Origin: Escherichia phage outra
Strand: one strand, 5' to 3'
Sequence record: MN850645.1
DNA: 64,000 nt
Positions 9,544-48,541 of the stretch are shown here, piece by piece. Within the stretch, counting starts at the first letter, position 1; each line of letters starts with the position of its first letter. The position numbers and the translations under genes were made by a program. The notes beneath the pieces were generated by a model that made no database searches, had not been told where the DNA came from, and worked only from the letters and a program-made list of their open reading frames with translations.

Positions 9544-9894
9544 TTAACCCAAACACATCTGTGCAATCAAGCCCTGTATAAATTTATTAGCTTCTTTACT
9601 GTCGTAGTCAGTCTCTTCTGGATATCCATCTTCATCGTACACAACTGTACCTTCAATATACCCTGCCTCAATTAAGGCGCGGATCATATCAAATTGCCAG
9701 CATGAGTTACCAAATGGACGTTTACCATTAAAACACTCTTCTTCTCTCCATAACGTAGAGAGTAGTTGTCGGAAATATTCCCGTACAGTGACAGTACCAA
9801 GATCTGAATCCTCAAACATAACATCCAGGGCATCAGGATTGCTTTTCTCTACGTAAGGAATATATTTAACACCATTAATAGTTACATCAAGCAT
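9544..9894 (-). CDS. hypothetical protein (116 aa)
   Basis: ORF in operon orientation. Confidence 0.5.
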   Translation of the reverse strand: MLDVTINGVKYIPYVEKSNPDALDVMFEDSDLGTVTVREYFRQLLSTLWREEECFNGKRPFGNSCWQFDMIRALIEAGYIEGTVVYDEDGYPEETDYDSKEANKFIQGLIAQMCLG

Positions 9895-18921: not shown

Positions 18922-19136
18922 TATTTTGAAAATTTTTATTTTTATAAAAAGGGGTGTGGGTTTCATGTACGGAAATCCACCCTCTGAATAATATATCCAG
19001 AGTAAATATTATTCTGTACTCTGTTAATAAAGTATTTAATTTGTTTGTTTGACTATGGTATCTGATCTTTAAAAGGCATACTATCTCTTAACTACTACTT
19101 ATAACAGAACAGTAAAATCATTTTTATAAAAAGGAC

Positions 19137-19340
19137 AAAATTATTTAAAGTTTTTACAGATTTTTGGGTACAAATTTTGAAAATGAAAAGTTCAAGTTTG
19201 GTCAAAATTATTTAAAGTTTTTGTACGTATTTCTATCCAGATTTTGAAAATGAAAACTTCAATTTTTTAAAAATTCCCCAGTTTATTTAAAGTTTTTTTG
19301 CCTTTTTCCGTAGAAAAATCAAAAATGAAAAGTTCAATTT
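19137..19340. repeat. three tandem imperfect direct repeats of about 67 bp
   Basis: each unit contains TTATTTAAAGTTTTT ... GAAAATGAAAAGTTCAA. Confidence 0.7.
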
Positions 19341-19363
19341 CGTGTTTTTATGGGTGTGCGTAT

Positions 19364-19472
19364 GATAATCATTTTCATTTGTAAATGAGAATCATTATCA
19401 TTTAAGTATGTAAGTGATAATCATTCTCAGTAAGAGAATGAGAATCATTAGCAAATGAGAATTTTCTCATTT
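19364..19472. promoter_or_regulatory. cluster of Fur-box-like palindromes (AATGAGAATCATTATCA etc.)
   Basis: 19384-19400 matches 14/15 of the E. coli Fur consensus core ATGATAATCATTATC; further GATAATCATTCTC-type palindromes at 19416-19472. Confidence 0.5.
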
Positions 19473-19734: not shown

Positions 19735-20001
19735 TTATTTTTTGTTTTCTTGCCAGGATAGGACACCTAGCCAAAAATACATGTCGCCCCGCGCCCCTGG
19801 CGGGATCTTGCTTTCCCCGCCGCCACTGCAAGCCCATAGATAACCATTTGCGAACGTATCAAAATGATCTATTTCTTCCACCTTATGATCGCCCAGGTTG
19901 AGAACGGTTTCAACCTTTAAGCCCGTTGCGCTTGCTACCTGGTGCACCGTGCCGCCTTGCCAGCCTAATGAGTGCATGAGGTGTAAAGTAGTATTTGTCA
20001 T
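19735..20001 (-). CDS. hypothetical protein (88 aa), GC-rich, divergent from island
   Basis: ATG 20001 with AAGGG SD; possible minus-strand promoter TTGCTA-18-TATTAT at 20049-20078. Confidence 0.45.
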   Translation of the reverse strand: MTNTTLHLMHSLGWQGGTVHQVASATGLKVETVLNLGDHKVEEIDHFDTFANGYLWACSGGGESKIPPGARGDMYFWLGVLSWQENKK

Positions 20002-20112: not shown

Positions 20113-20141
20113 TTGACGTTCCTCACCTGGTAGCGTATTAT
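20113..20141 (+). promoter_or_regulatory. sigma70-like promoter
   Basis: -35 TTGACG 20113-18, 17-bp spacer, -10 TATTAT 20136-41. Confidence 0.55.
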
Positions 20142-20268
20142 TCATCTTGTCGAGGGGGGCGAGGCACAACGACAATAAACAAAAGGAGGGCGCAATGCAG
20201 GACGGGCAAAGGTGAGGATCTCCACAATCCACCGTCACAATAACATTACTTATAAAAGGTTGATAACG

Positions 20269-20364
20269 ATGATCAAGAAAGAAAACAGCTTGACGGTTGG
20301 AACGATTAACGCTATCATTCTAGCCGTTCCATTTTGGATTGTAGTAGCGGTTATTATCTTTTAA
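20269..20364 (+). CDS. hypothetical membrane peptide (31 aa)
   Basis: hand-translated; hydrophobic; weak SD. Confidence 0.25.
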   Translation: MIKKENSLTVGTINAIILAVPFWIVVAVIIF

Positions 20365-20372
20365 AAATATTC

Positions 20373-20428
20373 TTGACAACGTTTTTTAATCTGATAAGAT
20401 GTATCACATAGGGCGGCAATAGTGCCGC
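20373..20428 (+). promoter_or_regulatory. sigma70-like promoter plus type-B leader hairpin
   Basis: -35 TTGACA 20373-78, -10 TAAGAT 20395-400, hairpin GCGGCA-ATAG-TGCCGC 20413-28. Confidence 0.6.
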
Positions 20429-20452
20429 TCATAACAGAAGAGAGAAATAATC

Positions 20453-20725
20453 ATGGCATCATATAGCGCATCAATGATCGTAGCTGGCATCACTGGTAAA
20501 CCTATGCGCGGTGGCGGATCTTTCGCTAACATCAATATTGATGGGCGTTTATCCCTGGATGCAGCGATCACCGTGGCACGGGAAACATTTAAAAAAGAAT
20601 GTAATTTCAATAAACAAGATTATCTCGGCTTCGTTATTGAAAAAACCGCGCGCTTTGTGGATTATAAAAGCCCGAAAATGATCGACACTACACTAAAAGC
20701 GCAAGATGTAGCGTTTTTGCTTTAA
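20453..20725 (+). CDS. hypothetical protein (90 aa)
   Basis: ORF downstream of promoter/hairpin cassette; host-like codons. Confidence 0.55.
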   Translation: MASYSASMIVAGITGKPMRGGGSFANINIDGRLSLDAAITVARETFKKECNFNKQDYLGFVIEKTARFVDYKSPKMIDTTLKAQDVAFLL

Positions 20726-20728
20726 GGC

Positions 20729-20789
20729 TTGACACTTAAAAATAATTTTGTAATATATACCACATAAGGCGGGGAAATGGTTTCCCGCC
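20729..20789 (+). promoter_or_regulatory. sigma70-like promoter plus type-A leader hairpin
   Basis: -35 TTGACA 20729-34, -10 TAATAT 20751-56, hairpin GGCGGGGAAA-TGG-TTTCCCGCC 20768-89. Confidence 0.6.
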
Positions 20790-20811
20790 AAATCAAAGAA
20801 AGGGTAATGCA

Positions 20812-21174
20812 ATGAGCAAGCAAATCAATACTATCATGTTAAACCTGGTATCTTTCCGCGACGACGTGAAAAATCTTCCACGTGATGCAGTGGATGCACG
20901 GATCGAAAGCTATCGCTCACAGATCGCAACGCTACCGCTAAAACGTGATCAACATGCCGCTAATATGATGCTTAATGCTATGCTTAAAAAGATGATTCAA
21001 TGTGATCTTACCCTGGCTTATGAATATGCTGGCGATCTCTTTGTAACATATAGCAAGCCCGTACCAGGTATGAGCACAACCGAAGAATTGCATGCCTTAA
21101 ATCTGCGACAAGATGCATGGGATAACATGCGCCGTGTTATGGTATGGGTAGAAAGCGGTAAAATTTACGAATAA
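20812..21174 (+). CDS. hypothetical protein (120 aa)
   Basis: AAAGGG SD; downstream of cassette. Confidence 0.55.
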   Translation: MSKQINTIMLNLVSFRDDVKNLPRDAVDARIESYRSQIATLPLKRDQHAANMMLNAMLKKMIQCDLTLAYEYAGDLFVTYSKPVPGMSTTEELHALNLRQDAWDNMRRVMVWVESGKIYE

Positions 21175-21180
21175 AAACGG

Positions 21181-21234
21181 TTAACATTGCACTAAAACCT
21201 GATAAGCTATCTTAAAGCGGGAACTATTCCCGCT
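21181..21234 (+). promoter_or_regulatory. weak promoter-like sequence plus leader hairpin variant
   Basis: TTAACA-16-TAAGCT, hairpin AGCGGGAA-CTA-TTCCCGCT 21216-34. Confidence 0.35.
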
Positions 21235-21252
21235 TACATAGGATAAAACTTT

Positions 21253-21402
21253 ATGAAACAATATGTAATGAGTATTCACACCAAAAACGGCGCTACTGTT
21301 ACAACTCCGGCACGGTTTGCACTTGTAAACCGTTGCAAGAGACTAAAACGAGAGTTAAAAAATAACCGTGCAACGGGCTGCTTTAAACGCTGGGGAGGAT
21401 AA
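21253..21402 (+). CDS. hypothetical small protein (49 aa)
   Basis: hand-translated. Confidence 0.4.
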   Translation: MKQYVMSIHTKNGATVTTPARFALVNRCKRLKRELKNNRATGCFKRWGG

Positions 21403-21404
21403 TC

Positions 21405-21677
21405 TTGTTTTTTCTAAAAGTTTTTGATAATGTGATCGCTTTTGAACATGCTACAACGTTCAACCTGGCGAGATACGCTATCAGGTTTAAAGATAATGTT
21501 TATCCCCGTGCTGGTGGCGGTTACACTATCTTTAATCATCGTAACGCTCAATTAACAGATATAACGAATCCAGATCCTGGAGTGTATCGCATAGGCTGGC
21601 TACCGTCAAAAGACGCGGCAAGCATGTTTAAGGTGTGTAAACTACTAACAGAAGAGGCGAACGAACATGGGGCGTGA
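21405..21677 (+). CDS. hypothetical protein (90 aa), TTG start
   Basis: GGAGGA SD before TTG. Confidence 0.45.
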   Translation: MFFLKVFDNVIAFEHATTFNLARYAIRFKDNVYPRAGGGYTIFNHRNAQLTDITNPDPGVYRIGWLPSKDAASMFKVCKLLTEEANEHGA

Positions 21678-22221
21678 ATATGTGATCCAGTCATGGGTAA
21701 AGCATGACGCTAATGATCCGCGCATAATACCAGATGACATGATCGATCACATGGTAGGGTACAGCGGGGAGCAGATAGGGAATCGAGCGGCAAAGAGCAA
21801 CGGGCACACAAAGACGCGATCCGTTCGCCCTGGTTGGCTGGCAAATGGTAACGCTGACATTGCAAGCGCCGCAGATCCAAGCGATGACGCTAAAAATAAT
21901 CCCTTATATAGCATTGATCCGGCTTTTAAGGTGTTAGAAGAGTATCCCGCTAAATTAGCCGCACTAGATAAGGCATACGAAGAAAAGCGCATGGCATGGA
22001 CTGTATACAACACCGCTAAAATGGTGCTAGATGCAAAATTGATTAAAGCCCAGGAGAAGATCAATAAACTTGTTGCAGTAGCGCAAGAGGAAGACCAGGA
22101 CGACCAGGAGGAAGAGGAAGAAATCATGCCTACCCTGGAAGAGGAAGAGATCCAGCCATACATGCCGACGGAAGAGGAAAAAAGACAAGCCCTAAAAAAT
22201 TATGAAAATTGCATTGTGTAA
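21667..22221 (+). CDS. hypothetical protein with acidic C-terminal tail (184 aa)
   Basis: ORF; C-terminus QEEDQDDQEEEEE. Confidence 0.5.
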   Translation: MGREYVIQSWVKHDANDPRIIPDDMIDHMVGYSGEQIGNRAAKSNGHTKTRSVRPGWLANGNADIASAADPSDDAKNNPLYSIDPAFKVLEEYPAKLAALDKAYEEKRMAWTVYNTAKMVLDAKLIKAQEKINKLVAVAQEEDQDDQEEEEEIMPTLEEEEIQPYMPTEEEKRQALKNYENCIV

Positions 22222-22224
22222 GGC

Positions 22225-22280
22225 TTGACATATGCAAATAAGCCCCGTAATATGTACCACATAAAGCGGGGCAACGCCCC
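22225..22280 (+). promoter_or_regulatory. sigma70-like promoter plus short GC hairpin
   Basis: -35 TTGACA 22225-30, -10 TAATAT 22248-53, hairpin GGGGC-AAC-GCCCC 22268-80. Confidence 0.5.
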
Positions 22281-22302
22281 ATAAAGTGAAATAAAAAATC
22301 AC

Positions 22303-22330
22303 TTGACACCTGAAATCAGTAAGCTATAAT
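22303..22330 (+). promoter_or_regulatory. consensus sigma70 promoter
   Basis: -35 TTGACA 22303-08, 16-bp spacer, -10 TATAAT 22325-30. Confidence 0.65.
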
Positions 22331-22367
22331 GCTTATATAGATTGAAACATTACTAAGGAATAAAAGC

Positions 22368-22547
22368 ATGGCTATTATTGCAAAAACTGAGATCGTAGGT
22401 TTAGATTCTATCATCCTGGCATATGAGGAAGCTGTAGAAATGTATGTGGTTTCCTATGGTGATTATATCCGTGAATATAAATCTATTGATCTAGCTTTTG
22501 AATGCTATATTCGCCAGGTCAATAAAGCATATGATGATTATCGTTAA
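22368..22547 (+). CDS. hypothetical small protein (59 aa)
   Basis: hand-translated; AAGGA SD. Confidence 0.45.
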   Translation: MAIIAKTEIVGLDSIILAYEEAVEMYVVSYGDYIREYKSIDLAFECYIRQVNKAYDDYR

Positions 22548-22566
22548 AAGTTTTAGTCTTGTGCTA

Positions 22567-22595
22567 TTGACAACGAACGATAGTACAAGCATAAT
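22567..22595 (+). promoter_or_regulatory. sigma70-like promoter
   Basis: -35 TTGACA 22567-72, 17-bp spacer, -10 CATAAT 22590-95. Confidence 0.5.
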
Positions 22596-22642
22596 AACTT
22601 TTATCGGGAATACTCCTAACTAATCAAAAGAGATTAAAGACT

Positions 22643-23008
22643 ATGGCTAAAAATATCAATGTTTCTGCTTATGCTACCCTGGCTAACACTGCTAAAATTG
22701 AACTATCTAGCATTGAAGCGGTACATATTAGCGCCCGTCGCTGGTTTCAAAAGTCTTATGGTAACACTTATTTCTCTTTGATGGTTGACGTTGAGATCGG
22801 CGGTAAACTGATCGAAGTCGTTAACGTTCCGTTTCACTATGGCTACGGGGATCATTTTGATACCGTTGCCCTAGAAGAGTTTAGCAAGGTTATCAACCTG
22901 GAAGGTAAAGAGTTTTCAAATTATGCCTACCTTTCCCGTTTTTGCCGTGATAATGGGATCGCTGTATACAGTCATGCAAGCGATGTTAAACGTAAAAAAG
23001 ATTTATAA
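22643..23008 (+). CDS. hypothetical protein (121 aa)
   Basis: ORF downstream of promoter. Confidence 0.55.
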   Translation: MAKNINVSAYATLANTAKIELSSIEAVHISARRWFQKSYGNTYFSLMVDVEIGGKLIEVVNVPFHYGYGDHFDTVALEEFSKVINLEGKEFSNYAYLSRFCRDNGIAVYSHASDVKRKKDL

Positions 23009-23014
23009 AAAGCA

Positions 23015-23079
23015 TTGACAGCACGAATAAAAAGCGTAAAATGTTTCATATCAGGACGGGGAACGAAGTAACACCCCGT
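23015..23079 (+). promoter_or_regulatory. sigma70-like promoter plus hairpin (no ORF immediately downstream)
   Basis: -35 TTGACA 23015-20, -10 TAAAAT 23037-42, hairpin ACGGGG...CCCCGT 23056-79. Confidence 0.45.
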
Positions 23080-23128
23080 TAAGTAGCCCAGGAGTAAGGC
23101 ACACGAAAAACTCCCCTGATAAAATAGT

Positions 23129-23186
23129 TTGACAATGGTTTCTAATAACGTATAATACTTACATCGAGAGCGGGAACACTTCCCGC
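23129..23186 (+). promoter_or_regulatory. consensus sigma70 promoter plus leader hairpin
   Basis: -35 TTGACA 23129-34, -10 TATAAT 23151-56, hairpin GCGGGAA-CAC-TTCCCGC 23170-86. Confidence 0.65.
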
Positions 23187-23211
23187 CTCACTGAAAAAAG
23201 AGATTAACATC

Positions 23212-23451
23212 ATGGCTAAATCTAAAATGTTCTTAGGTCACAAAAACAAAACTCATTGGAATGTAAGCCTTTGGATCAACAACGATGAAGGTTTTTATAA
23301 TCTTGCGCGTGAATTTATCGCAGCTAACACCAATAAGAATGACGCAGCGCGTGATATGATGTTATTTCTTGAAAGTATGGATCAAGATAAAACGCCAGAC
23401 GGTTACAAGTTCAGTAAAACCGCGATCCGTGCCGCTATGGTTGGAATGTAA
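23212..23451 (+). CDS. hypothetical protein (79 aa)
   Basis: ORF downstream of cassette. Confidence 0.55.
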   Translation: MAKSKMFLGHKNKTHWNVSLWINNDEGFYNLAREFIAANTNKNDAARDMMLFLESMDQDKTPDGYKFSKTAIRAAMVGM

Positions 23452-23546
23452 AGGAGACATAAAAATGAAACATCGTTCGACCTATCTCACAAAACGTTTT
23501 AGCTTAGATCATAAATTGGGCTATTACGGAAGAAATAGAAAATAAT

Positions 23547-23606
23547 TTGACAACGTTTTAAATTAGTGTAAGATATATCACATAGGGCGGGAAATGGTTT
23601 CCCGCC
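23547..23606 (+). promoter_or_regulatory. sigma70-like promoter plus type-A leader hairpin
   Basis: -35 TTGACA 23547-52, -10 TAAGAT 23569-74, hairpin GGCGGGAAA-TGG-TTTCCCGCC 23586-606. Confidence 0.65.
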
Positions 23607-23628
23607 AAATCAAAGAAAGGTTATCATT

Positions 23629-23856
23629 ATGGCTATCATTATTGTTCGCGTATCCGGTACGGTTGGAAGCTCCCAGGTAGTAGCAGTTATCACCGAGAAG
23701 AAAGGGGATGATCTTCACTCTTCCTTGAATAGCTGGGCGGTAGCTAACTTCGGGCAATGGTCGAGCGTTGAGTACATCGAATCCTACCAGGTGCCAACGA
23801 TTAGCCTAACCGATCTAAATGTTGATCGCTTGTTGTGCCTGGATGGATTAAACTAA
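23629..23856 (+). CDS. hypothetical protein (75 aa)
   Basis: ORF downstream of cassette. Confidence 0.55.
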   Translation: MAIIIVRVSGTVGSSQVVAVITEKKGDDLHSSLNSWAVANFGQWSSVEYIESYQVPTISLTDLNVDRLLCLDGLN

Positions 23857-23864
23857 AAATAATC

Positions 23865-23920
23865 TTGACAAGATAACTAAAATCAGTAAAATGTAATGCA
23901 TAGGGCGGCAATAGTGCCGC
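23865..23920 (+). promoter_or_regulatory. sigma70-like promoter plus type-B leader hairpin
   Basis: -35 TTGACA 23865-70, -10 TAAAAT 23887-92, hairpin GCGGCA-ATAG-TGCCGC 23905-20. Confidence 0.6.
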
Positions 23921-23943
23921 TCCTAGTGAGAGAGATTATCAAA

Positions 23944-24156
23944 ATGGCTAATATCCGCACACTGTTAAAAAATGCAAAACAAGTTTTATTTTCTGATCAC
24001 GATCATTTTAATAAAGATATTACAGGCGTGAAGAATATCAAAGAGGTAAAAAGTGTTATGGGTATCTATTGCAATATGAAGCGAGTAGGCACATTTGGTG
24101 ATAAAGTATTATATCAGGCAGGTGACTACAATTTTACTTTGACAATTATCAACTAA
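23944..24156 (+). CDS. hypothetical protein (70 aa)
   Basis: start moved to ATG 23944 (track start 23896 lies inside promoter/hairpin). Confidence 0.5.
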   Translation: MANIRTLLKNAKQVLFSDHDHFNKDITGVKNIKEVKSVMGIYCNMKRVGTFGDKVLYQAGDYNFTLTIIN

Positions 24157-24167
24157 GGGATCACAAA

Positions 24168-24326
24168 ATGAAAACTTGCCAATGTGGTAAAAAGTCTATC
24201 TCTGGTTTAAAACGTGGCGTTGCTCTTTGTCAATATCACTATAACGCTCAAACGTGGGGTAAGCAGTGGGCGGATCAGGTGGAAGAGGCAAAGAAAGAAA
24301 ATATAAAAGTAGTTGCAAAGAAATAA
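24168..24326 (+). CDS. small Zn-ribbon-like protein (52 aa)
   Basis: hand-translated; CQCG...CQYH motif. Confidence 0.4.
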   Translation: MKTCQCGKKSISGLKRGVALCQYHYNAQTWGKQWADQVEEAKKENIKVVAKK

Positions 24327-24373
24327 AAATAGAGTAAACTGTATTCATCAAGGCGGTGGAATAGCTCACCGCC
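24313..24373 (+). promoter_or_regulatory. promoter-like sequence plus leader hairpin variant
   Basis: TTGCAA-16-TAAACT, hairpin GGCGGTG...CACCGCC 24352-73. Confidence 0.4.
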
Positions 24374-24397
24374 TAACAAAGAGAAGAGGAAAACATC

Positions 24398-24568
24398 ATG
24401 ATCACTTTCGCTACCCGTGAAGCCGCTCGCAACGTTGCACGTAAAGTTAATGCCGCCAACCTGGGCGCTACGCTTAAAGCCCCGGTAAAAGATGAATCAG
24501 GTAAATGGATCTTTCCTGGTCTGCGTCACGCTGATAAGCTGGGAACATTAACGTTAAAAAATAAATAA
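24398..24568 (+). CDS. hypothetical small protein (56 aa)
   Basis: hand-translated; GAGGA SD. Confidence 0.45.
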   Translation: MITFATREAARNVARKVNAANLGATLKAPVKDESGKWIFPGLRHADKLGTLTLKNK

Positions 24569-24575
24569 TATCCGC

Positions 24576-24634
24576 TTGACAGTAGCATGGTTTATAAGTA
24601 AAGTAACAACAACGGCGGGAAATGGTTTCCCGCC
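24576..24634 (+). promoter_or_regulatory. sigma70-like promoter plus type-A leader hairpin
   Basis: -35 TTGACA 24576-81, -10 TAAAGT 24599-604, hairpin GGCGGGAAA-TGG-TTTCCCGCC 24614-34. Confidence 0.55.
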
Positions 24635-24654
24635 ATCAATAAAGAGATAAGATT

Positions 24655-25014
24655 ATGAAATCAGTAAAAGCAATCAAAACTTACATTGTATCGGCTATTT
24701 CTTTTGAAGGTACTACAACCGAAAAAGAAAAAATCACCGAACTGATGCGCCGTTTTAATTCTGAATACTGGTATCCCGATAATCAAAAACGTTACAATTA
24801 TAACGTGATCAAGGCGATAGCCTCATGGTTACAAGGTTTACCGTCAGACATTAACATTGCCTTTGATTATAACGAGATTGATCATTTATTAATTGAATGG
24901 AAGTACATAAAAGAAACAAGCAAAGAAACAACCGTTACCCGTGAGCGGGAAAATTATTGGTTATATATTGCAAGCATGATCGTAATCCTGGCAAAACAGC
25001 ATAACGTGGCGTAA
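24655..25014 (+). CDS. hypothetical protein (119 aa)
   Basis: ORF downstream of cassette. Confidence 0.55.
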   Translation: MKSVKAIKTYIVSAISFEGTTTEKEKITELMRRFNSEYWYPDNQKRYNYNVIKAIASWLQGLPSDINIAFDYNEIDHLLIEWKYIKETSKETTVTRERENYWLYIASMIVILAKQHNVA

Positions 25015-25029
25015 TTAAGAGGAAGAAAC

Positions 25030-25167
25030 ATGAACGCATCACAGCAGATCGAAAAATTCAACCGCAGCAAGGCGCGTAAAGATTGGAACGAAGAGATCAC
25101 CAAAAAAGGCGACAAGCGGAACAAAACAAAAAGAGATCGCAGCACAAAAAGATACTGGAACGAATAA
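25030..25167 (+). CDS. hypothetical small basic protein (45 aa)
   Basis: hand-translated; GAGGA SD; Lys/Arg-rich. Confidence 0.4.
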   Translation: MNASQQIEKFNRSKARKDWNEEITKKGDKRNKTKRDRSTKRYWNE

Positions 25168-25174
25168 CAAAAAA

Positions 25175-25196
25175 GGGCGCAATAAGCGCCCTTTTA
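25175..25196 (+). terminator. rho-independent terminator
   Basis: GGGCGC-AATAA-GCGCCC stem-loop followed by TTTT. Confidence 0.65.
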
Positions 25197-25286
25197 GCTT
25201 ATATAGGGGCTTGTTACCCATAGGCAATGGTAACGCCAGGGCAAGCCTATAAATCAACGTTAGACGGCTTTACAGGAGCTTTAAAA

Positions 25287-25469
25287 ATGAGATTAGAAGA
25301 AATAAGCAAGGCACTAGACCAGGAGCAAAGGTTATGCGCCCGATATCGTGATCAATATGGCTTCATAACTAGCGGCGTGATCCTGGGGATGGAAGGCAAT
25401 AAGATTTTTATTGACACGTTGAAAAACGTTGTATATAGTGACAATATAATCTCAATAAAACATATATGA
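25287..25469 (+). CDS. hypothetical small protein (60 aa)
   Basis: start moved to ATG 25287 with AGGAG SD. Confidence 0.4.
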   Translation: MRLEEISKALDQEQRLCARYRDQYGFITSGVILGMEGNKIFIDTLKNVVYSDNIISIKHI

Positions 25470-25477
25470 GGCAAGAA

Positions 25478-25879
25478 ATGAAAAACTTATTGATCGCTGG
25501 TTTAATCTCTTTTGGCATGGTTGGAACATCTAGCGCGGCGATATCCTCCACAGTAGCAGAATTAAGCGCCGTTGATGCAATGGAAAACGTCATGCTTATT
25601 AATAATGCGATCCCCGATGAAATCATGGAGGATTCACACATGATCGCTTATGGTGCTGTTACACAACTAACGGCAAAAATAGATAAATCTATTGTTAATG
25701 GCTTAAATGAAGATGTACCATGTGAAATTATTACCAGTGTGCTGACTACTCAAAATTTTACGCCGTGGTTAAAAAGTATTCAAAAAGTACACAGTACAGC
25801 CGCAGATCGTAGCAATGAAAAACTAGTGTCAGCACTTGCAACGTATACCCTAGCAAAATGCACTGAGATAAAAGATTGA
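25478..25879 (+). CDS. putative secreted/periplasmic protein
   Basis: MKNLLIAGLISFGMVGTSSA signal-peptide-like N-terminus; GAGG SD. Confidence 0.5.
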   Translation: MKNLLIAGLISFGMVGTSSAAISSTVAELSAVDAMENVMLINNAIPDEIMEDSHMIAYGAVTQLTAKIDKSIVNGLNEDVPCEIITSVLTTQNFTPWLKSIQKVHSTAADRSNEKLVSALATYTLAKCTEIKD

Positions 25880-25904
25880 CAACATAGAAAGCACGTTATA
25901 AGAT
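25876..25904 (+). promoter_or_regulatory. sigma70-like promoter
   Basis: -35 TTGACA 25876-81, 17-bp spacer, -10 TAAGAT 25899-904. Confidence 0.5.
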
Positions 25905-25926
25905 ACACACAACAAAGGAGAACTAC

Positions 25927-26229
25927 ATGAACGGCATAGCTAAAACGTTTTTTCTTTTTTCTGGTGTAAATGATCCATCAATAAAAGTCGATAGTGTAAA
26001 AGAAAAAAATACTATCACCGCTAAATTGTTTCAAGATGAAACAAATAACGTGCTAATCATTAATCTTAAAGAAGTAACGAAAGGTTATTATACTATTGCT
26101 TACCATGCGATCTATCATGCTGGTACTGGTGAGGAAGTGCAAACAAGCAACAACGAAAGCGCGGCGCTACCTGGTGATCTGGTGCTGGGCGTTATCAGTT
26201 TAATTGTCAATGATTTTTTTAAGGAGTAA
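25927..26229 (+). CDS. hypothetical protein (100 aa)
   Basis: AAAGGAG SD. Confidence 0.55.
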   Translation: MNGIAKTFFLFSGVNDPSIKVDSVKEKNTITAKLFQDETNNVLIINLKEVTKGYYTIAYHAIYHAGTGEEVQTSNNESAALPGDLVLGVISLIVNDFFKE

Positions 26230-26233
26230 AACC

Positions 26234-26329
26234 ATGCCCTATTTACATTTATTTTTCGGTATCTTATTAACAGGATCTTTTTTCTTCTGTATGCTTGTTT
26301 CTATTGTAAACCACGTTTTAAGACATTAA
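26234..26329 (+). CDS. hypothetical membrane peptide (31 aa)
   Basis: hand-translated; AAGGAG SD; hydrophobic. Confidence 0.35.
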   Translation: MPYLHLFFGILLTGSFFFCMLVSIVNHVLRH

Positions 26330-26338
26330 GGAAACAGC

Positions 26339-26458
26339 ATGAAAATTATTCCCGTACAATATAGCGTAATAAATCCAGCATATGAGGAAGGAAGGAAAAC
26401 AAGCATGGCTTTATGTTGTATTGCTACTATAGCCATGTTGTTATACATTGTGTTTTAA
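26339..26458 (+). CDS. hypothetical membrane peptide (39 aa)
   Basis: hand-translated; AAGGAA SD; hydrophobic C-terminus. Confidence 0.35.
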   Translation: MKIIPVQYSVINPAYEEGRKTSMALCCIATIAMLLYIVF

Positions 26459-26487
26459 TAGGTTTTATAGTTGTACGCTTTAAAGGC

Positions 26488-26516
26488 TTGACAATTTTTT
26501 GTTATGCTTTAAACTA
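26488..26516 (+). promoter_or_regulatory. promoter-like sequence (good -35, weak -10)
   Basis: -35 TTGACA 26488-93; -10 candidate weak. Confidence 0.3.
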
Positions 26517-26558
26517 TATCTTGAAAACGGCAAAGGCCGCAAACAAAAGGGTAAAATT

Positions 26559-26882
26559 ATGAAATCTGTGATCGGTGTTTATTTGGATAACTCTGATTTT
26601 TTCTATCATCGCGCGCGTTTACTTGATGCTATTGAAATGATAGAATCAGGCTTTAAAGAGTATCGCCTTGCACATGATGACCTGGAAGCATTACAGGGCA
26701 ATAGTGTTTTTACATTGCAAGCGAAAGCACTATGCAAAAGCCGGATCGAGATTGCAAGTAAAAAGATAGAGCGCGGCATGTCCTGGTTGCGCACCGCAGA
26801 AATCAACATGGGGCAATGGTACGGCGAAAACTTAGAAAATAAACATGCTTTTGTCAATGTAGAAAATATTGAAGATTATTGA
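26559..26882 (+). CDS. hypothetical protein (107 aa)
   Basis: start moved to ATG 26559. Confidence 0.5.
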   Translation: MKSVIGVYLDNSDFFYHRARLLDAIEMIESGFKEYRLAHDDLEALQGNSVFTLQAKALCKSRIEIASKKIERGMSWLRTAEINMGQWYGENLENKHAFVNVENIEDY

Positions 26883-26944
26883 TTGACAGCACACCGAACG
26901 GGGAGTATATTGTATCTCATAGAGCGGGGAAATGGTTTCCCCGC
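26883..26944 (+). promoter_or_regulatory. sigma70-like promoter plus type-A leader hairpin
   Basis: -35 TTGACA 26883-88, -10 TATATT 26906-11, hairpin GCGGGGAAA-TGG-TTTCCCCGC 26924-44. Confidence 0.6.
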
Positions 26945-26964
26945 CTTAAAAGAAGAGATAAGCT

Positions 26965-27249
26965 ATGAAGATCACAAAAGCACTTTCCAACTATGCAGCA
27001 CGTCGCGGCTTATGTTTAACCGTTGAAAACCTGGGGAAAGAAGATTTTTTGTGCTTTTGGGAGCTTGAGAATGATAATGAGTGGATCTTCTCTTATTCTA
27101 TCTGCGAAGATCAAAACGGTTGTTTATTAGCCTGGCGCGGTAATATCTATCTACCGGAAGAAATCAAAGAAGAATTACCAGGCACGATCATGACTGAGAA
27201 ACAGCTTAAGGAAGTGATCAATTTTGTAGGGCAAAACATTAAAAAATAA
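26965..27249 (+). CDS. hypothetical protein (94 aa)
   Basis: ORF downstream of cassette. Confidence 0.55.
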   Translation: MKITKALSNYAARRGLCLTVENLGKEDFLCFWELENDNEWIFSYSICEDQNGCLLAWRGNIYLPEEIKEELPGTIMTEKQLKEVINFVGQNIKK

Positions 27250-27250
27250 T

Positions 27251-27307
27251 TTGACACTAGGCAAACAACGTAGTAAAGTTTATCACATAGGGCGGCAATA
27301 GTGCCGC
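27251..27307 (+). promoter_or_regulatory. sigma70-like promoter plus type-B leader hairpin
   Basis: -35 TTGACA 27251-56, -10 TAAAGT 27274-79, hairpin GCGGCA-ATAG-TGCCGC 27292-307; leader nearly identical to 20401-20452. Confidence 0.6.
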
Positions 27308-27330
27308 TCATAACAGAAGAGAAACAAATC

Positions 27331-27501
27331 ATGATCCCAACTATGTTTTATGTATCGCGCAAAGGTCACAATATTTTTTGGTCTGAAGATTTAAATGAAG
27401 CCATGACGTTTGCCCGTGATCGTGTCGCTATCGGTGGCGTTAACATTACCGTAACCGATGAAAATGGCATTGAATACTATAACGGCGACGATGAAGAGTA
27501 A
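27331..27501 (+). CDS. hypothetical small protein (56 aa)
   Basis: start moved to ATG 27331 (track start inside hairpin). Confidence 0.5.
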   Translation: MIPTMFYVSRKGHNIFWSEDLNEAMTFARDRVAIGGVNITVTDENGIEYYNGDDEE

Positions 27502-27508
27502 TTAATGA

Positions 27509-27529
27509 GGCGGGGGAATATTCCCCGCC
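27509..27529 (+). promoter_or_regulatory. intercistronic leader-type hairpin
   Basis: GGCGGGGGAA-TA-TTCCCCGCC between two ORFs without a recognisable promoter. Confidence 0.45.
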
Positions 27530-27548
27530 GTCAATAAAGAGGTAAATC

Positions 27549-27818
27549 ATGAAAATATCATTGGACGTTGCAATCAAGGCCATCGAATCCGGTTACACCC
27601 TGGTAAAAGATGATAAGGCTAAAATAGTGCATCATGTTAACAAGGAAACAGGCGAAAGCATGATCACATATAAAGCCGCCTACTTTCTCCAATCAGTAGC
27701 AGATCCGCGCGTACAACGCCAGGTTACGGCGGCTATTGCTAAAAAAGTATGTGCTTTACAGGGTACAAGTTTTAACGAGATCGCCCCGTGTTTTGACTGG
27801 TCGAGCTTGAAAAAATAG
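27549..27818 (+). CDS. hypothetical protein (89 aa)
   Basis: GAGG SD. Confidence 0.55.
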   Translation: MKISLDVAIKAIESGYTLVKDDKAKIVHHVNKETGESMITYKAAYFLQSVADPRVQRQVTAAIAKKVCALQGTSFNEIAPCFDWSSLKK

Positions 27819-27819
27819 T

Positions 27820-27847
27820 TTGACAATATGCGGTTATCTGGTAAAGT
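27820..27847 (+). promoter_or_regulatory. sigma70-like promoter (degenerate hairpin follows)
   Basis: -35 TTGACA 27820-25, -10 TAAAGT 27842-47. Confidence 0.5.
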
Positions 27848-27899
27848 GTACGACATAGGGCGGGGCAATAAGGCAACGCCCACTAATGAGGGTAAAATC

Positions 27900-28004
27900 A
27901 TGTTAGAGAAAATTTTCACGGTTGTAGTAGTGGGCCTGGCGTTATCGGTTGGAGTGATTGCAACTATGGCTAACATGATCCTATCTTCCCACGGTATTGG
28001 ATAA
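27900..28004 (+). CDS. hypothetical membrane peptide (34 aa)
   Basis: hand-translated; GAGGG SD; hydrophobic. Confidence 0.35.
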   Translation: MLEKIFTVVVVGLALSVGVIATMANMILSSHGIG

Positions 28005-28014
28005 GGTGAATCAA

Positions 28015-28230
28015 ATGATCACGAATAAGACAGGTAAAACAGAATTTTTACGCGGCTTGCAAATTGGTAAACCTGAAATATGGCATTGCACTAAATCCGC
28101 GCATAATGAGATGAAAGACTTTACCGCCACGTTACAACGTGTTAAAATATCTATTACGCAGAAAAAAGCCTTATTAGTAGTAGAAAACGAGATACCGCAA
28201 ACCATTATTATTGTCGAGCGTACAGCATGA
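28015..28230 (+). CDS. hypothetical protein (71 aa)
   Basis: start moved to ATG 28015 with AAGGTG SD. Confidence 0.45.
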   Translation: MITNKTGKTEFLRGLQIGKPEIWHCTKSAHNEMKDFTATLQRVKISITQKKALLVVENEIPQTIIIVERTA

Positions 28231-28613
28231 AAACTGAAATCATTATTGAAATCATCAACGGTTATAAAGAAGCCTTTATTTTTGCTGAATCAGCCAGGGA
28301 TCATGAAGGTAATTTTGTAAACGACATGACTGACTATGATTTTTCAGATCAAGCCCATCAGCGGATCATTCATGACGTAGCGGCTTATTGTGATGCCAAT
28401 GATGCTGCTATCTCTGAGGCAATGAGCGACGGCGCAACAGCAAACCAGATCGGGAATGACTTACATTTCACCCGTAACGGTCACGGCGTAGGCTTTTGGG
28501 ATCGCCCTGAAATATACACTACTAACACCGCCAACCGCCTAACAAATGCAGCTAAATTAATGCCATCGGTGCATGCTTACATTGGTGAAGATAATTTGAT
28601 TTATATTGAATAA
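28227..28613 (+). CDS. hypothetical protein (128 aa)
   Basis: 4-nt overlap with upstream gene. Confidence 0.55.
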   Translation: MKTEIIIEIINGYKEAFIFAESARDHEGNFVNDMTDYDFSDQAHQRIIHDVAAYCDANDAAISEAMSDGATANQIGNDLHFTRNGHGVGFWDRPEIYTTNTANRLTNAAKLMPSVHAYIGEDNLIYIE

Positions 28614-28619
28614 AAAGTA

Positions 28620-28678
28620 TTGACACCGATCCCCGATATGTTATTATTTACCACGTAGGCGGGAAATGGTTTCCCGCC
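28620..28678 (+). promoter_or_regulatory. sigma70-like promoter plus type-A leader hairpin
   Basis: -35 TTGACA 28620-25, -10 TATTAT 28642-47, hairpin GGCGGGAAA-TGG-TTTCCCGCC 28658-78. Confidence 0.65.
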
Positions 28679-28702
28679 AGGTAATCAAAAAAGGTAAATA
28701 CT

Positions 28703-29092
28703 ATGCGCAACCTGGTTTCTGTTTCTAACGTTGAAAAATTTCAATCCTTGCAGGGTATCGTTAACAACGTAGCGCCTTTTCTAGTCAATGGCTTGATTGC
28801 AAAGATGAAAAATAAACATCATGCAGCATGGTCTGCTTACTGCTTTGATAATGATGAAAAAGCGGCTGAAATGATGTTAAATATGCTGTTAGATAGTGTA
28901 GAATCATCTTTACCGGAAAACATCGCAGAAGAGATCACCTATCGTTATAATATGGCGATCACCTATCAGGAGGTTGCGCAATTCAATATGATGGACGATG
29001 ACGAACAACAGGATCAGGAAATGTTTTGGGAATATGCAGATCGTCAATCGGCTTTTGATGAAAAGTTAGCGATGTATTATAACGAATATTAA
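28703..29092 (+). CDS. hypothetical acidic protein (129 aa)
   Basis: AAAGG SD; downstream of cassette. Confidence 0.55.
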   Translation: MRNLVSVSNVEKFQSLQGIVNNVAPFLVNGLIAKMKNKHHAAWSAYCFDNDEKAAEMMLNMLLDSVESSLPENIAEEITYRYNMAITYQEVAQFNMMDDDEQQDQEMFWEYADRQSAFDEKLAMYYNEY

Positions 29093-29108
29093 TACACGGT
29101 AAAAGAAA

Positions 29109-29133
29109 GGGGCGCACTAAGCGCCCTTTTTTG
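29109..29133 (+). terminator. rho-independent terminator
   Basis: GGGGCGC-ACTA-AGCGCCC stem-loop followed by TTTTTTG. Confidence 0.7.
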
Positions 29134-29477
29134 TATTCTTTTTCACGATGGAAGTAACACGTAAAGAATAAACGTAAGAGGTGGCGTAAAACAGCCTAAA
29201 ACCGATTATAACCGCTTAAACAAGGTAGTAATGACTAATCACCTTGCCAGGATGAAAAAGCTGTTATAAAGCTATCTAGAGCGTTTAAAGCACATAGGAA
29301 ATAATTTGCTTTTTATCTTGCCTTTTATCCTGCTTTTGATTATTATTATGGAACGGGCGGCACCTGGGGACAGGGGAAGATAATCACCGGAAGATCCCGC
29401 TATATATTAATAGCTAATACCTATCAAACAACAAAACATCAAAGGAATAAACTATCAAATCTTTACAATCCTACCTA

Positions 29478-29537
29478 TTGACACAGGATCACCCTTATAC
29501 TAATATGTATCCCGTAGGGCGGGAAATGGTTTCCCGC
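29478..29537 (+). promoter_or_regulatory. sigma70-like promoter plus type-A leader hairpin
   Basis: -35 TTGACA 29478-83, 17-bp spacer, -10 TAATAT 29501-06, hairpin GCGGGAAA-TGG-TTTCCCGC 29519-37. Confidence 0.65.
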
Positions 29538-29865: not shown

Positions 29866-30249
29866 ATGAGCAATATCATCAACCTGGCAGCGACTGTAAA
29901 CGGTAAAGATTTTAACGGCGCTGTAGATCATGATCCTATGTGGTGCTTATCAGTGTTTAAAGGTGACTTGGTTGAAGTTAGAACAACCGAAGGTTATAGC
30001 GACGATTATAAATGCGAGATTCATTTACACAACTGGTACACGGGTAAAACTTATGCGCTGAATCATGCGTTTATCGGCAAGGTTGAATATAGGGAAATGA
30101 TCGACGAAGAAACGGGGCAAGATTTTAGCGATTATGTTTATATTCGTTCCGAGACATTAGCCGAACGTTTGATCGAGAAAATGAAAGCAAAAAATAAAAT
30201 TAATTTAGCTCATTGGATTGATATAACAAACGATCCTGCTTATCAGTAA
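29866..30249 (+). CDS. hypothetical protein (127 aa)
   Basis: GAGGAA SD. Confidence 0.55.
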   Translation: MSNIINLAATVNGKDFNGAVDHDPMWCLSVFKGDLVEVRTTEGYSDDYKCEIHLHNWYTGKTYALNHAFIGKVEYREMIDEETGQDFSDYVYIRSETLAERLIEKMKAKNKINLAHWIDITNDPAYQ

Positions 30250-30263
30250 ATAACATTTCAAAC

Positions 30264-30292
30264 AAGGGCGCTTATTGCGCCCTTTCTTTTTA
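30264..30292 (+). terminator. rho-independent terminator (end of island)
   Basis: AGGGCGC-TTATT-GCGCCCT stem-loop followed by TTCTTTTT. Confidence 0.7.
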
Positions 30293-30496
30293 CCTAAATA
30301 AAGATGATAGCTTTTACCTATCAAAAACGTTCACCGAAAAAAGTGAATAGATCGCGGTATCGAGCTAATCAGGGAGCAGATGAACAACCATACCATGAAG
30401 ATCATAAGGCGCTTACAACGGCTTTTAGACCGCTTATTTTTAATTTCTTCATGCAACTATCTGGCAAAAACAGCCTTTTTCTTGTCTTTCCTCTTA

Positions 30497-30570
30497 AATG
30501 ATAATCATTCTTATTTATAGCTGATTATTTATGCAATAAACTGCATAATGCAATAATGATAATCATTCTT
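30497..30570. promoter_or_regulatory. two Fur-box-like sites (AAATGATAATCATTCTTA; AATAATGATAATCATTCTT)
   Basis: GATAATCATT core shared with Fur consensus. Confidence 0.45.
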
Positions 30571-31424
30571 AACTTATGACCATCTAACCTATAAAATAAT
30601 AAGCTATCTAACTAAATTAAAACTAATTATCTCACCTTTATTTATAACTTACTGTTACTATCTCATTGATAACCTTATATTAAACAACAATAACTAATAT
30701 AAATCATTACTAAGCTAAATATAATCTATCTAACCTTTAAAACTATAACTATAATCTATCGAATTGTTGCACAAAGTAACTATTAAATTGTTAGTAACAT
30801 TGCTAAATAATTAATATCCTATCTATTTATGATCTAATCTTTACCTTCCTATTTATTACCTAAATAACCATTTCATATAGTAATTATTTCATACAATAAC
30901 TATAACAAGAAACATAATTCGCAAGCGTATCATTAGCAGCCTATGCCGGACACATAGGCGGCTAATAATAACGCAACTACACACCCCACATAATAACCAT
31001 CACCGATAGTTATTATTTGTGCTTATGTAGCTTGCAACAATTGCAAGCGCAACAATATACTAAGGTATATTGTATCCCTTACATTGTTGCGGTGCGTTAT
31101 TATTAGCTAATGTTTAGAACATTGGCTATAATATAAGCTGCATATAATAAGCTATTCAATAATAAACATCGTGAATAATGACATTGATGATCATAATGCG
31201 CCACCCTCCAGGGGGCGCTATGTGAACACAAAGAAATCTTTCTTATCAAGAAAATATTATCACTATTGCGCAAAATTATTTACATCTGAATAGATGATTT
31301 TTCATACTATTATTGTTATTTGTTGAGCATAGTTATAGCCTATTTGTTGAGCCTACTTTCTTAAAAGCGCAATAAATCAGAATTATCTTGATTTTTAGTG
31401 CGTTTTATAGTATAGAAAATATGC

Positions 31425-31443
31425 AAATGATAATCATTATCAG
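31425..31443. promoter_or_regulatory. near-consensus Fur box (AATGATAATCATTATC)
   Basis: 16 contiguous bases identical to positions 4-19 of E. coli Fur consensus GATAATGATAATCATTATC. Confidence 0.55.
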
Positions 31444-31607
31444 CTATCTTCCACGGGTAGCACTATTTCACGCCAGATCATTTCATTTGGCAAGGTGTAT
31501 ATAGATGTTTAGACTTGCCAAGTTATTGATTTACTTAGAATTTATCTATTTTGTTGTGAGTAGTACCTTTCTTGCTTAGAAAATAATCAAAAGTCTTATA
31601 AGTCATT

Positions 31608-31640
31608 GAATGATAATACAAATGATAATTATTCTCATTG
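31608..31640. promoter_or_regulatory. Fur-box-like tandem site (TGAATGATAATACAAATGATAATTATTCTCATTG)
   Basis: repeated GATAAT hexamers and palindromic half-sites. Confidence 0.4.
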
Positions 31641-31998
31641 ATATTTGAGGGGGACGGTCGGCAGAAATCGGGGGGTGCTGAAAATCGCGTTAAGCACCTC
31701 TCGCAAGCGAGCAGTATTTTGCGGCAAGTTATTGATATTATTGGCTTTACGCTTATGAAAAGGGGGTGTGTCGAAATAAAGCGGGTATACCGGAAAATTT
31801 TTGTGGCATAGATATTTATTTGTCTATATTATGTACAAAGGGGTGTGTTAAAAATATTAGGTATATATAGAATAATTGATAGGGAAATCCTATACTAATC
31901 CCTCCATTAATGATGTTTCTATGTTACTGTTCTTGTAATAGATGAAAAGACGCTGTATGATGTGTGGCATGAAACGTAAACTTATAAAGGAGTCTGAT

Positions 31999-32376
31999 AT
32001 GTGTGTTCCTCTTAGCAGTCCACTGCTGTTAGAATTTTATAAAGCATGGATGCAAGATCATTCCTCAATGCATCGTGAGAATGTTGGTTTGTGTATTTGC
32101 CTTATGGATTATCTGGCAACCACTATGTCAAAGAAAAAACCTACGCGAGAAGATATAGAACATTTCAAGATGGTTCGTAGTAAAACGCTGGAAGAGATGA
32201 AATTGCAATTCACGTGTGCTGGGCTATCCTCCTTCCTGCCCTTTAATGATGATCTTCTGTGTTATGAAGATGAAGGTAAGAAACATTCTTGCCATACTAA
32301 CCCAGAGAGATTGCAGTGGGTGAAAGATCGTATTGCCGATTCGTGTTTGGTGTTAGGGGGTGACAATGAAAAGTAA
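31999..32376 (+). CDS. paralogue-family protein A1 (Cys/His-rich, 125 aa)
   Basis: AAGGAG SD before ATG 31999; shares S..LL.FY..W, GLC.CL.DY, QFTCAGL..LPFN, CHTN..RLQWV..RI.D with three downstream paralogues. Confidence 0.6.
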   Translation: MCVPLSSPLLLEFYKAWMQDHSSMHRENVGLCICLMDYLATTMSKKKPTREDIEHFKMVRSKTLEEMKLQFTCAGLSSFLPFNDDLLCYEDEGKKHSCHTNPERLQWVKDRIADSCLVLGGDNEK

Positions 32377-48283: not shown

Positions 48284-48541
48284 TTATTCTACAGGAACTT
48301 CTTCACCAAGAGAAACTTCTAAACGGAATGCTTTACTTTCAATACACTCACTACCTTTTAGAAAATCAAATTGCACTATAGACTGACTTAATAGAATAGA
48401 TAGGATCACATCGCAATCTTCACTAGGGGCTAGATGTTTGTATTCTTCCTTCAAGGTAACATCATAAAAACATAAATCCCCTACTCCTAGTTCATCCCAT
48501 CCTTCCCACGCATCTACAAAGTTAAACTCTAAACCTTTCAT
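48284..48541 (-). CDS. hypothetical acidic protein (85 aa)
   Basis: ORF in operon orientation. Confidence 0.5.
   Translation of the reverse strand: MKGLEFNFVDAWEGWDELGVGDLCFYDVTLKEEYKHLAPSEDCDVILSILLSQSIVQFDFLKGSECIESKAFRLEVSLGEEVPVE

Follow-up and report, generated by a model that had tools for sequence, protein, structure and literature searches.

Fur-class boxes in and beside the terminal repeat of a phi92-like Escherichia phage

The non-coding terminus of Escherichia phage outra (record MN850645.1), as contained in a stretch of 64,000 nucleotides (nt) that was analysed whole and is here called the window, holds four sites, boxes A to D, of the class recognised by the host repressor Fur. 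Two of them, C and D, lie inside the direct terminal repeat (DTR), which would place a Fur box within 100 nt of each physical end of the DNA, and a partner array of the same class lies about 11 kb away, at the inner border of the gene block that runs to the right end of the genome. As sequence elements those of the terminus are Fur boxes, a kind already known, an identification that rests on their sequence and on comparison among relatives. Near-perfect copies within a terminal repeat suggest a use of Fur by the phage, either at the ends of its DNA or in the first transcription from it.

Sequence, setting and conservation of the boxes

Boxes were scored by mismatch counts only, against two descriptions of the Fur box: the 19-bp consensus GATAATGATAATCATTATC and the 7-1-7 motif TGATAATNATTATCA. 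Box C (31423-31442; like the other boxes, assigned to neither strand) contains an exact 16/16 match, AATGATAATCATTATC, at 31426-31441 and a perfect 7-1-7 motif, TGATAATCATTATCA, at 31428-31442, scoring 17/19 on the 19-bp consensus and 15/15 on the 7-1-7 motif; boxes A, B and D show one or two mismatches to the latter. Box A (30494-30512, core AATGATAATCATT at 30497-30509) lies ~850 nt upstream of the terminal repeat and has an identical 17-mer in common with box B (30552-30570, core at 30555-30567). Box D (31609-31639) is a tandem, in which a half-box, AATGATAAT at 31609-31617, precedes AATGATAATTATTCTCATT at 31621-31639. Each of A, B and C is one strong site; pairs of sites that overlap at a spacing of 6 bp occur in the terminus set at 31618/31624 and 31174/31180, the second pair forming a weak, degenerate fifth box (31174-31198) with five mismatches to the 19-mer. 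The region of this fifth box is variable, and the presence of 18-bp duplications in two relatives suggests that half-boxes turn over by slippage; the duplications (TGAATAATGACA-type) fall at 31160-31200 and were seen in EC_OE_11 and KKP_3264. The partner array (19358-19470) comprises four or five Fur-like boxes, with overlapping sites 6 bp apart at 19358/19364, 19381/19387 and 19410/19416. The consensus of the phage boxes, AAATGAKAATCATTCTCATT, is slightly narrower than the general Fur box.

Sites of this class were far more abundant than chance would provide. In the window, 22 matches to the 16-mer with ≤3 mismatches were found where 1.94 were expected, a count reached in 0/100 shuffles, and the 7-1-7 motif with ≤2 mismatches was found nine times (0.91 expected), 8/9 of these in two non-coding gaps. 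In the 1.7-kb gap that holds boxes A to D, four 13-mer cores with ≤1 mismatch compared with an expectation of 0.031, and 0/1000 local shuffles preserving dinucleotide composition reached four. The original prediction had placed a 16/16 Fur core match at 31425-31440, with related sites near 30497-30514, 30552-30570 and 31608-31640, and had proposed comparison with composition-matched shuffled sequence. The match is real, its position being off by one base, as are the related sites, at the coordinates given above for boxes A, B and D; given the strong enrichment, the observation stands.

The gap in question, 30250-31941 (1.7 kb, 31% G+C), lies between two plus-strand genes, lacks a convincing open reading frame (ORF) and is 94-96% identical to the corresponding sequence of Justusliebigvirus genomes (phi92, alia, arall, muut, EmilieFrey and others). 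Phages of this group are virulent E. coli myoviruses of ~146 kb, subfamily Stephanstirmvirinae, and by sequence identity the source of the window is a phi92-like virulent myovirus of the genus Justusliebigvirus. The phi92 record carries annotated 343-bp direct terminal repeats (DTR-L 1-343, DTR-R 148270-148612). By blastn, the left end of phi92 (first 562 bases, repeat included) aligns with the window from 31350 at 97% identity, and the alignment of its right end stops at 31692; the repeat, which marks the physical genome ends, is therefore represented in the window at 31350-31692 as a single collapsed copy, its duplication at both virion ends being taken from the phi92 and UAB_1 annotations. 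The same start of the repeat is seen in UAB_1, in which the left terminal repeat is annotated, and in the VEcB, W22 and PD114 records. Measured from the edges of the repeat, box C is 74-93 nt inside the left one and tandem D 53-83 nt inside the right one, which in virion DNA would be their distances from the ends; the order along the DNA is last gene (29866-30249), terminator, 1.1 kb of non-coding sequence with A and B, DTR with C and D, ~300 nt, and first gene.

This layout changes the meaning of the original prediction, which had seen the sites at the downstream edge of an island bracketed by one class of operator-like palindrome. At this edge the genome physically ends, and the terminal repeat encloses two of the four sites. 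The supposed island is not foreign: it is a block of immediate-early genes, conserved at the right terminus of phi92-like virulent phage DNA and making up ~8% of the genome. Twenty plus-strand sigma-70 promoters scoring ≥10/12, 18 of them with a perfect TTGACA, were found in 20113-29506 (9.4 kb), about one per small gene and all directed toward the right genome end, their density being much lower on either side. The bracketing itself was borne out: in the complete EmilieFrey genome (146,666 bp), the gaps homologous to those of the terminus set and the 19.4-kb array are the only places with cores at ≤1 mismatch, and with the cores so restricted the intervening block is truly bracketed. The distance from inner array to terminus gap is ~11 kb here, ~12 kb in KP2025 and tuntematon and ~10.5 kb in Klebsiella phage KpS8 (Mydovirus, Vequintavirinae), spacing kept across genera and indicating that the bracket is a conserved arrangement. 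Comparable boxes were found in the analogous gaps of L003 and KpS8, both of which are more distant relatives.

Among 12 Justusliebigvirus genomes, 19% of gap columns vary, compared with 6/82 box columns, a weak test because much of the gap is conserved at such distance; the box C 16-mer was invariant in 12/12. Against two Phapecoctavirus genomes (phiWec190 and phAPEC8), 42/52 core columns were identical in all three sequences, where the background is 45% (nominal binomial P = 2e-7, the columns not being independent). Box A and box C cores were each conserved at 12/13 columns in this comparison, and of box B only the left half (TGATAAT) was kept. For box D the phAPEC8 copy is aligned 6 nt out of place, so that the count understates its conservation: both phiWec190 and phAPEC8 carry an identical AATGATAATTATTCTCATT between diverged flanks.

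Host Fur and related sites in other phages

On several lines of evidence, boxes A to D would probably be bound by host Fur in vitro. Clusters footprinted with E. coli Fur consist of overlapping sites 6 bp (or 3 bp) apart (PMC2189734), and sites overlapping at 6 bp are present in the terminus set and in the partner array. On the E. coli chromosome, box C is matched best between fepB and entC, where the 16-mer AAATGATAATCATTAT is identical, and fepB and entC are listed among regions footprinted with DNase (PMC2189734). The phage boxes resemble the entC-fepB operators in this 16-mer, in the perfect 7-1-7 motif of box C and in the 6-bp overlapping clusters, and box C resembles entC in lying just downstream of a -35/-10-like pair. 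They differ from E. coli Fur operators in being inside or beside the terminal repeat of a virulent phage, most of them without an overlapping promoter, and in having no iron-related gene downstream. Capture of the host entC promoter by the phage was considered and rejected: the likeness is confined to box C and what adjoins it, and the upstream GAAAAT hexamer is out of register. An E. coli Fur sequence used as a tblastn query detected no Fur homologue in the phage; its only match was a chance one (E about 6), and a phage-encoded Fur was rejected.

Sites of this class also occur near the DNA ends of other phages. A 15-mer identical to TGATAATCATTATCA lies upstream of nohA in the Qin prophage of K-12, near 1636597 and ~35 nt from the cosN sequence GGGCGGCGACCT. 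A nohA site is known to be shifted with purified Fur and to be positive in a Fur titration screen (PMC2189734), and the Qin copy appears to be this published site, whose coordinates come from an older genome version. In lambda (NC_001416) the same 15-mer is found at 48452-48466 (L030 553-567), 36 nt from the right end and adjoining cosQ and cosN, so that the lambda and Qin boxes share with box C both an identical 15-mer and a place tens of bases from a physical end of phage DNA. Prophages of O157:H7 have an exact 21-mer, TGCAAATGATAATCATTATCA, in common with box C, in the gap between lysis and terminase genes (L011 2501-2521). Unlike the virulent phi92-like phage, with its direct terminal repeats, four boxes and distant array, phages of the lambda type are temperate, have cohesive ends and carry one box.

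T5 offers a second parallel. In T5 (NC_005859, L027) at least five boxes lie at 9558-9712, a stretch that falls within the annotated injection stop signal and surrounds the shear point, calculated at ~9618, and in the T5-like phage DT571/2 (KM979355, L026) eight boxes, at 6969 and 7332-7580, lie in the untranslated region equivalent to that of T5. The box class, AAATGAGAATCATT, is the same, and in both systems a terminal block of early genes, read toward the end, has at its inner border a large untranslated region, rich in repeats, in which the boxes lie. T5 differs in having a terminal repeat of ~10 kb that holds the pre-early genes and the injection stop signal (iss), and two-step entry is not known for phi92-like phages. 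By tblastn, DT571/2 dmp, A1, A2, T5.002, T5.005 and T5.007 gave no match at E≤1 in the window or the EmilieFrey genome, and homologues of the first-step machinery (A1, A2 and dmp) not being found, its presence here was rejected. Nor is the feature general among T5-like phages, Vibrio phage VF16 having only one weak box. The published analysis of the T5 injection stop attributes iss to DnaA boxes and never mentions Fur.

Host Fur boxes on phage DNA are documented for cargo genes of temperate phages, such as the sitABCD operon (PMC6969025) and stx1; a Stx1-converting phage was also among the matches listed. In those cases the phage is lysogenic and the boxes stand at the promoter of a recognisable toxin or iron-related gene, a kind of gene not found downstream of the boxes here. 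Fur boxes in phi92-like, rV5-like or T5 phages were not found described in the literature searched, coverage of which did not extend to the phi92 genome paper. Set side by side, the lambda cos region, the T5 injection-stop region, the DTR and inner array of phi92-like phages, and Mydovirus raise the prospect that high-affinity Fur boxes, either within about 100 nt of a physical genome end or where the DNA that enters first has its border, are a recurrent and unremarked feature of unrelated enterobacterial phages; from these comparisons we think it a possible, if unlikely, generalisation. Were it correct, host Fur may be exploited at entering DNA ends, for capture, for protection, or for a pause delimiting a ~12 kb first-step block.

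Possible roles of the boxes

We tentatively favour the reading that these are sites at which host Fur, once bound, would gate early transcription according to iron, a reading prompted by the sequence of the boxes and their surroundings. In iron-replete cells, Fur-Fe2+ dimers would sit on the boxes as the phage DNA enters and replicates. Box C, covering roughly +1 to +20 of a weak, conserved promoter-like element (TTGATT, 17-nt spacer, TATAGA; 31388-31416, plus strand), would then be placed much as the Fur site of E. coli entC is. The TTGATT hexamer and its distance of 30-31 nt to box C are kept in Phapecoctavirus, with a different spacer sequence and a -10 region reading TGtTAAGAA or TGtTAATAA. 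Boxes C and D also flank the best sigma-70-like promoter of the DTR (TTGGCA-17-TAGACT at 31487-31515, plus strand; TTGACA in phi92), and given both arrangements Fur would be expected to damp rightward transcription from the terminal repeat toward the first genes. Iron starvation would relieve this damping, and the earliest phage transcription would thereby become responsive to iron. Box B abuts a weak promoter-like site, TTAACT-17-TAAAAT, at 30569-30597.

Several points weigh against this reading, in which a regulatory consequence is what we infer from the boxes. The -10 hexamer before box C, TATAGA, ends in A in place of the highly conserved T, and the element is absent from the promoter scan because of that last base. 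Promoter-like sites in the gap were not above chance (12 found, 11.2 expected; none above 9/12), the scan placed no convincing promoter at boxes A, B and D or the 19.4-kb array, box D and the array having no candidate at all, and the array lies between convergent genes. On linear virion DNA, moreover, no coding sequence lies downstream of boxes A and B, and the literature search returned no transcript or expression data for phi92-like phages. It is also puzzling that the early genes of a virulent phage should be left open to damping by so abundant a repressor of the host, and the boxes near DNA ends in lambda and in the T5 injection-stop region point to a role outside classical gene control. 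The original description of the sites as operator-like palindromes is upheld as to Fur class, and a simple operator function is unproven because most boxes overlap no convincing sigma-70 promoter. A RyhB-like, Fur-regulated small RNA downstream of box C was rejected: Rfam gave no match at gathering scores, the gap yielding only a chance microRNA match (E = 0.65), and conservation of the DTR is at its lowest downstream of box C.

The central DTR segment that carries the best promoter (31466-31560) is flanked by inverted repeats of the GGCACTATT type. Compared with its orientation in 53 other records, it is inverted in AMO3598 (L022, about 1660-1760) and in pEC-M2929-1AR.1, two phages that appear to be identical. 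EmilieFrey encodes, at 110996-111658, a 220-aa serine recombinase (Pfam Resolvase). A phase-variable promoter between C and D was considered and rejected, inversion being found in only 2/55 records that apparently represent the same phage, and for that reason treated as a single evolutionary event.

Position is the whole of the argument for a different role, in which Fur or another host protein at the boxes would act on DNA ends or on entry and not on promoters, through capture or protection of the DNA that enters first or through a pause at the inner array, with the right-terminal 11-12 kb early block behaving like the first-step-transfer DNA of T5. Each physical end has its box within 100 nt, the spacing of the bracket is kept across genera, lambda has its perfect 15-mer close to the right cohesive end (which we take to be the end that leaves the capsid first), and both the T5 and DT571/2 boxes and the T5-like layout of block, repeats and array fit such a role. 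Purely positional as it is, the argument has to be set against the failure of tblastn to find A1, A2 or dmp homologues and against the single weak box of VF16; Fur is not known to be required for the growth of lambda or T5, for which fur mutants are routine hosts. An end or entry function seems unlikely to us. The lack of promoters at most boxes would suit a sink, in which every genome brings roughly ten or more strong boxes and replication, by raising their number, would titrate Fur and derepress host iron uptake, supplying the iron-dependent ribonucleotide reductases of the phage. The boxes form clusters and are predicted to bind with high affinity, the terminal repeat gives C and D a second copy, class I and class III ribonucleotide reductases are encoded (EmilieFrey annotation), and plasmid-borne Fur boxes do titrate Fur in the Fur titration assay (PMC2189734). 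A sink needs no fixed positions, however, yet those relative to the repeat edges and to TTGATT are kept across genera; and the one box of lambda is too few for titration. Titration strikes us as improbable.

Narrowness of the phage consensus, together with several small predicted DNA-binding proteins or transcription factors annotated in the early region of EmilieFrey, could be accommodated if the boxes served a phage-encoded DNA-binding protein sharing the specificity of Fur. Five candidate regulators gave no Pfam family, however, tblastn found no Fur homologue, and no such protein is known to be common to the phages with this box class (lambda/Qin, T5-like, phi92-like and Mydovirus). Host Fur binds in vitro to the nohA site described in the literature, apparently the Qin copy. 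We regard operators for a phage protein as distinctly improbable. Recognition by terminase, the boxes directing cutting at the edges of the terminal repeat, would account for C and D lying within the repeat with A and B just upstream, and for the lambda and Qin boxes adjoining cosQ and cosN. It is very improbable, given that the strongest array is ~11 kb from any end, that no box stands at either edge of the DTR, and that the left edge is marked by a different repeat, TATTTGTTG, of variable copy number. As for chance, a gap of 31% G+C might be expected to contain functionless AT-rich palindromes or promoter-like low-complexity sequence, the more so as Fur boxes resemble -35 and -10 hexamers. 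That explanation is effectively refuted by the 0/1000 local dinucleotide shuffles that reach the observed count, by the confinement of the boxes to two gaps of a 146.7-kb genome and by their conservation across genera amid diverged flanks, and we give it almost no credence. Iron-gated early transcription by host Fur, held with the reserve stated above, is the reading that we retain.

Neighbouring features and wider significance

The remaining features of the terminus are described from left to right. The last gene of the genome (29866-30249) is T4 gp30.8-like, according to the annotation of phi92 gp248, and is followed on the plus strand by an intrinsic terminator hairpin (30264-30284) conserved in Phapecoctavirus. 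A 46-codon ORF at 30381-30521, ending inside box A, is probably not coding because its start ATG reads ACG in Phapecoctavirus. Between box B and the weak fifth box lies a multi-hairpin inverted-repeat element (30920-31115), with perfect 15-nt arms at 30961-30975 and 31093-31107 and a single-stranded DNA fold z of -6.3, which is conserved in Phapecoctavirus; a similar element is present in L003 and KpS8, and it could be an origin or a concatemer-processing hairpin. Directly before the left edge of the DTR stand the TATTTGTTG repeats (31317-31349, plus strand), present in one to five copies among relatives and a candidate terminase recognition or cut signal. The edges themselves, also candidate terminase signals, read CTATTTGTTG|AGCCTAC on the left and GCGTTA|AGCACC on the right. 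Beyond the repeat, a conserved plus-strand block, AAAGGGGTGTG ... GGTATATATAG ... ATAATTGATAGG (31837-31890), precedes the first gene, whose likely start is the ATG at 31999, preceded by AAGGAG. This block and another at 30300-30375 are nearly invariant across genera, and AAAGGGGTGTG occurs three times in the window (18948, 31760 and 31837), always within one of the two large gaps.

Around the inner array, three ~60-bp direct repeats, each ending in TTTGAAAATGAAAAGTTCAA, lie directly upstream (19130-19330), and a unit resembling them stands before the box of KpS8 at L010 11857. The annotation of EmilieFrey, but not that of arall, includes a G+C-rich ORF of 88 codons on the minus strand (19735-20001). 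Pfam searches with this small ORF, the five candidate early regulators and the first three genes gave no match; only the serine recombinase was matched. Four records labelled 'Campylobacter phage' (MG065639, MG065645, MG065656 and MG065689; A150, A145, C3 and A110a) are 94% identical to the terminus region over its full length, the probable reason being a wrong host label or contamination.

The Fur box is a textbook element whose known role on phages is chiefly to switch the cargo genes of temperate ones. Here Fur-class boxes are conserved across at least three genera of large virulent phages, at a non-coding terminus and at the inner border of an immediate-early block. In the gut and during infection the chief nutritional signal is iron status, which also influences the performance of phage therapy in iron-limited tissue. 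If Fur binds these boxes, the earliest steps of a virulent phage would be tied to the iron status of its host. The pattern across phage families is in addition a cheap, testable lead on a host factor acting at entering phage DNA ends and, if true, it would supply a candidate host factor for the T5 injection stop, which has gone unexplained for more than 50 years.

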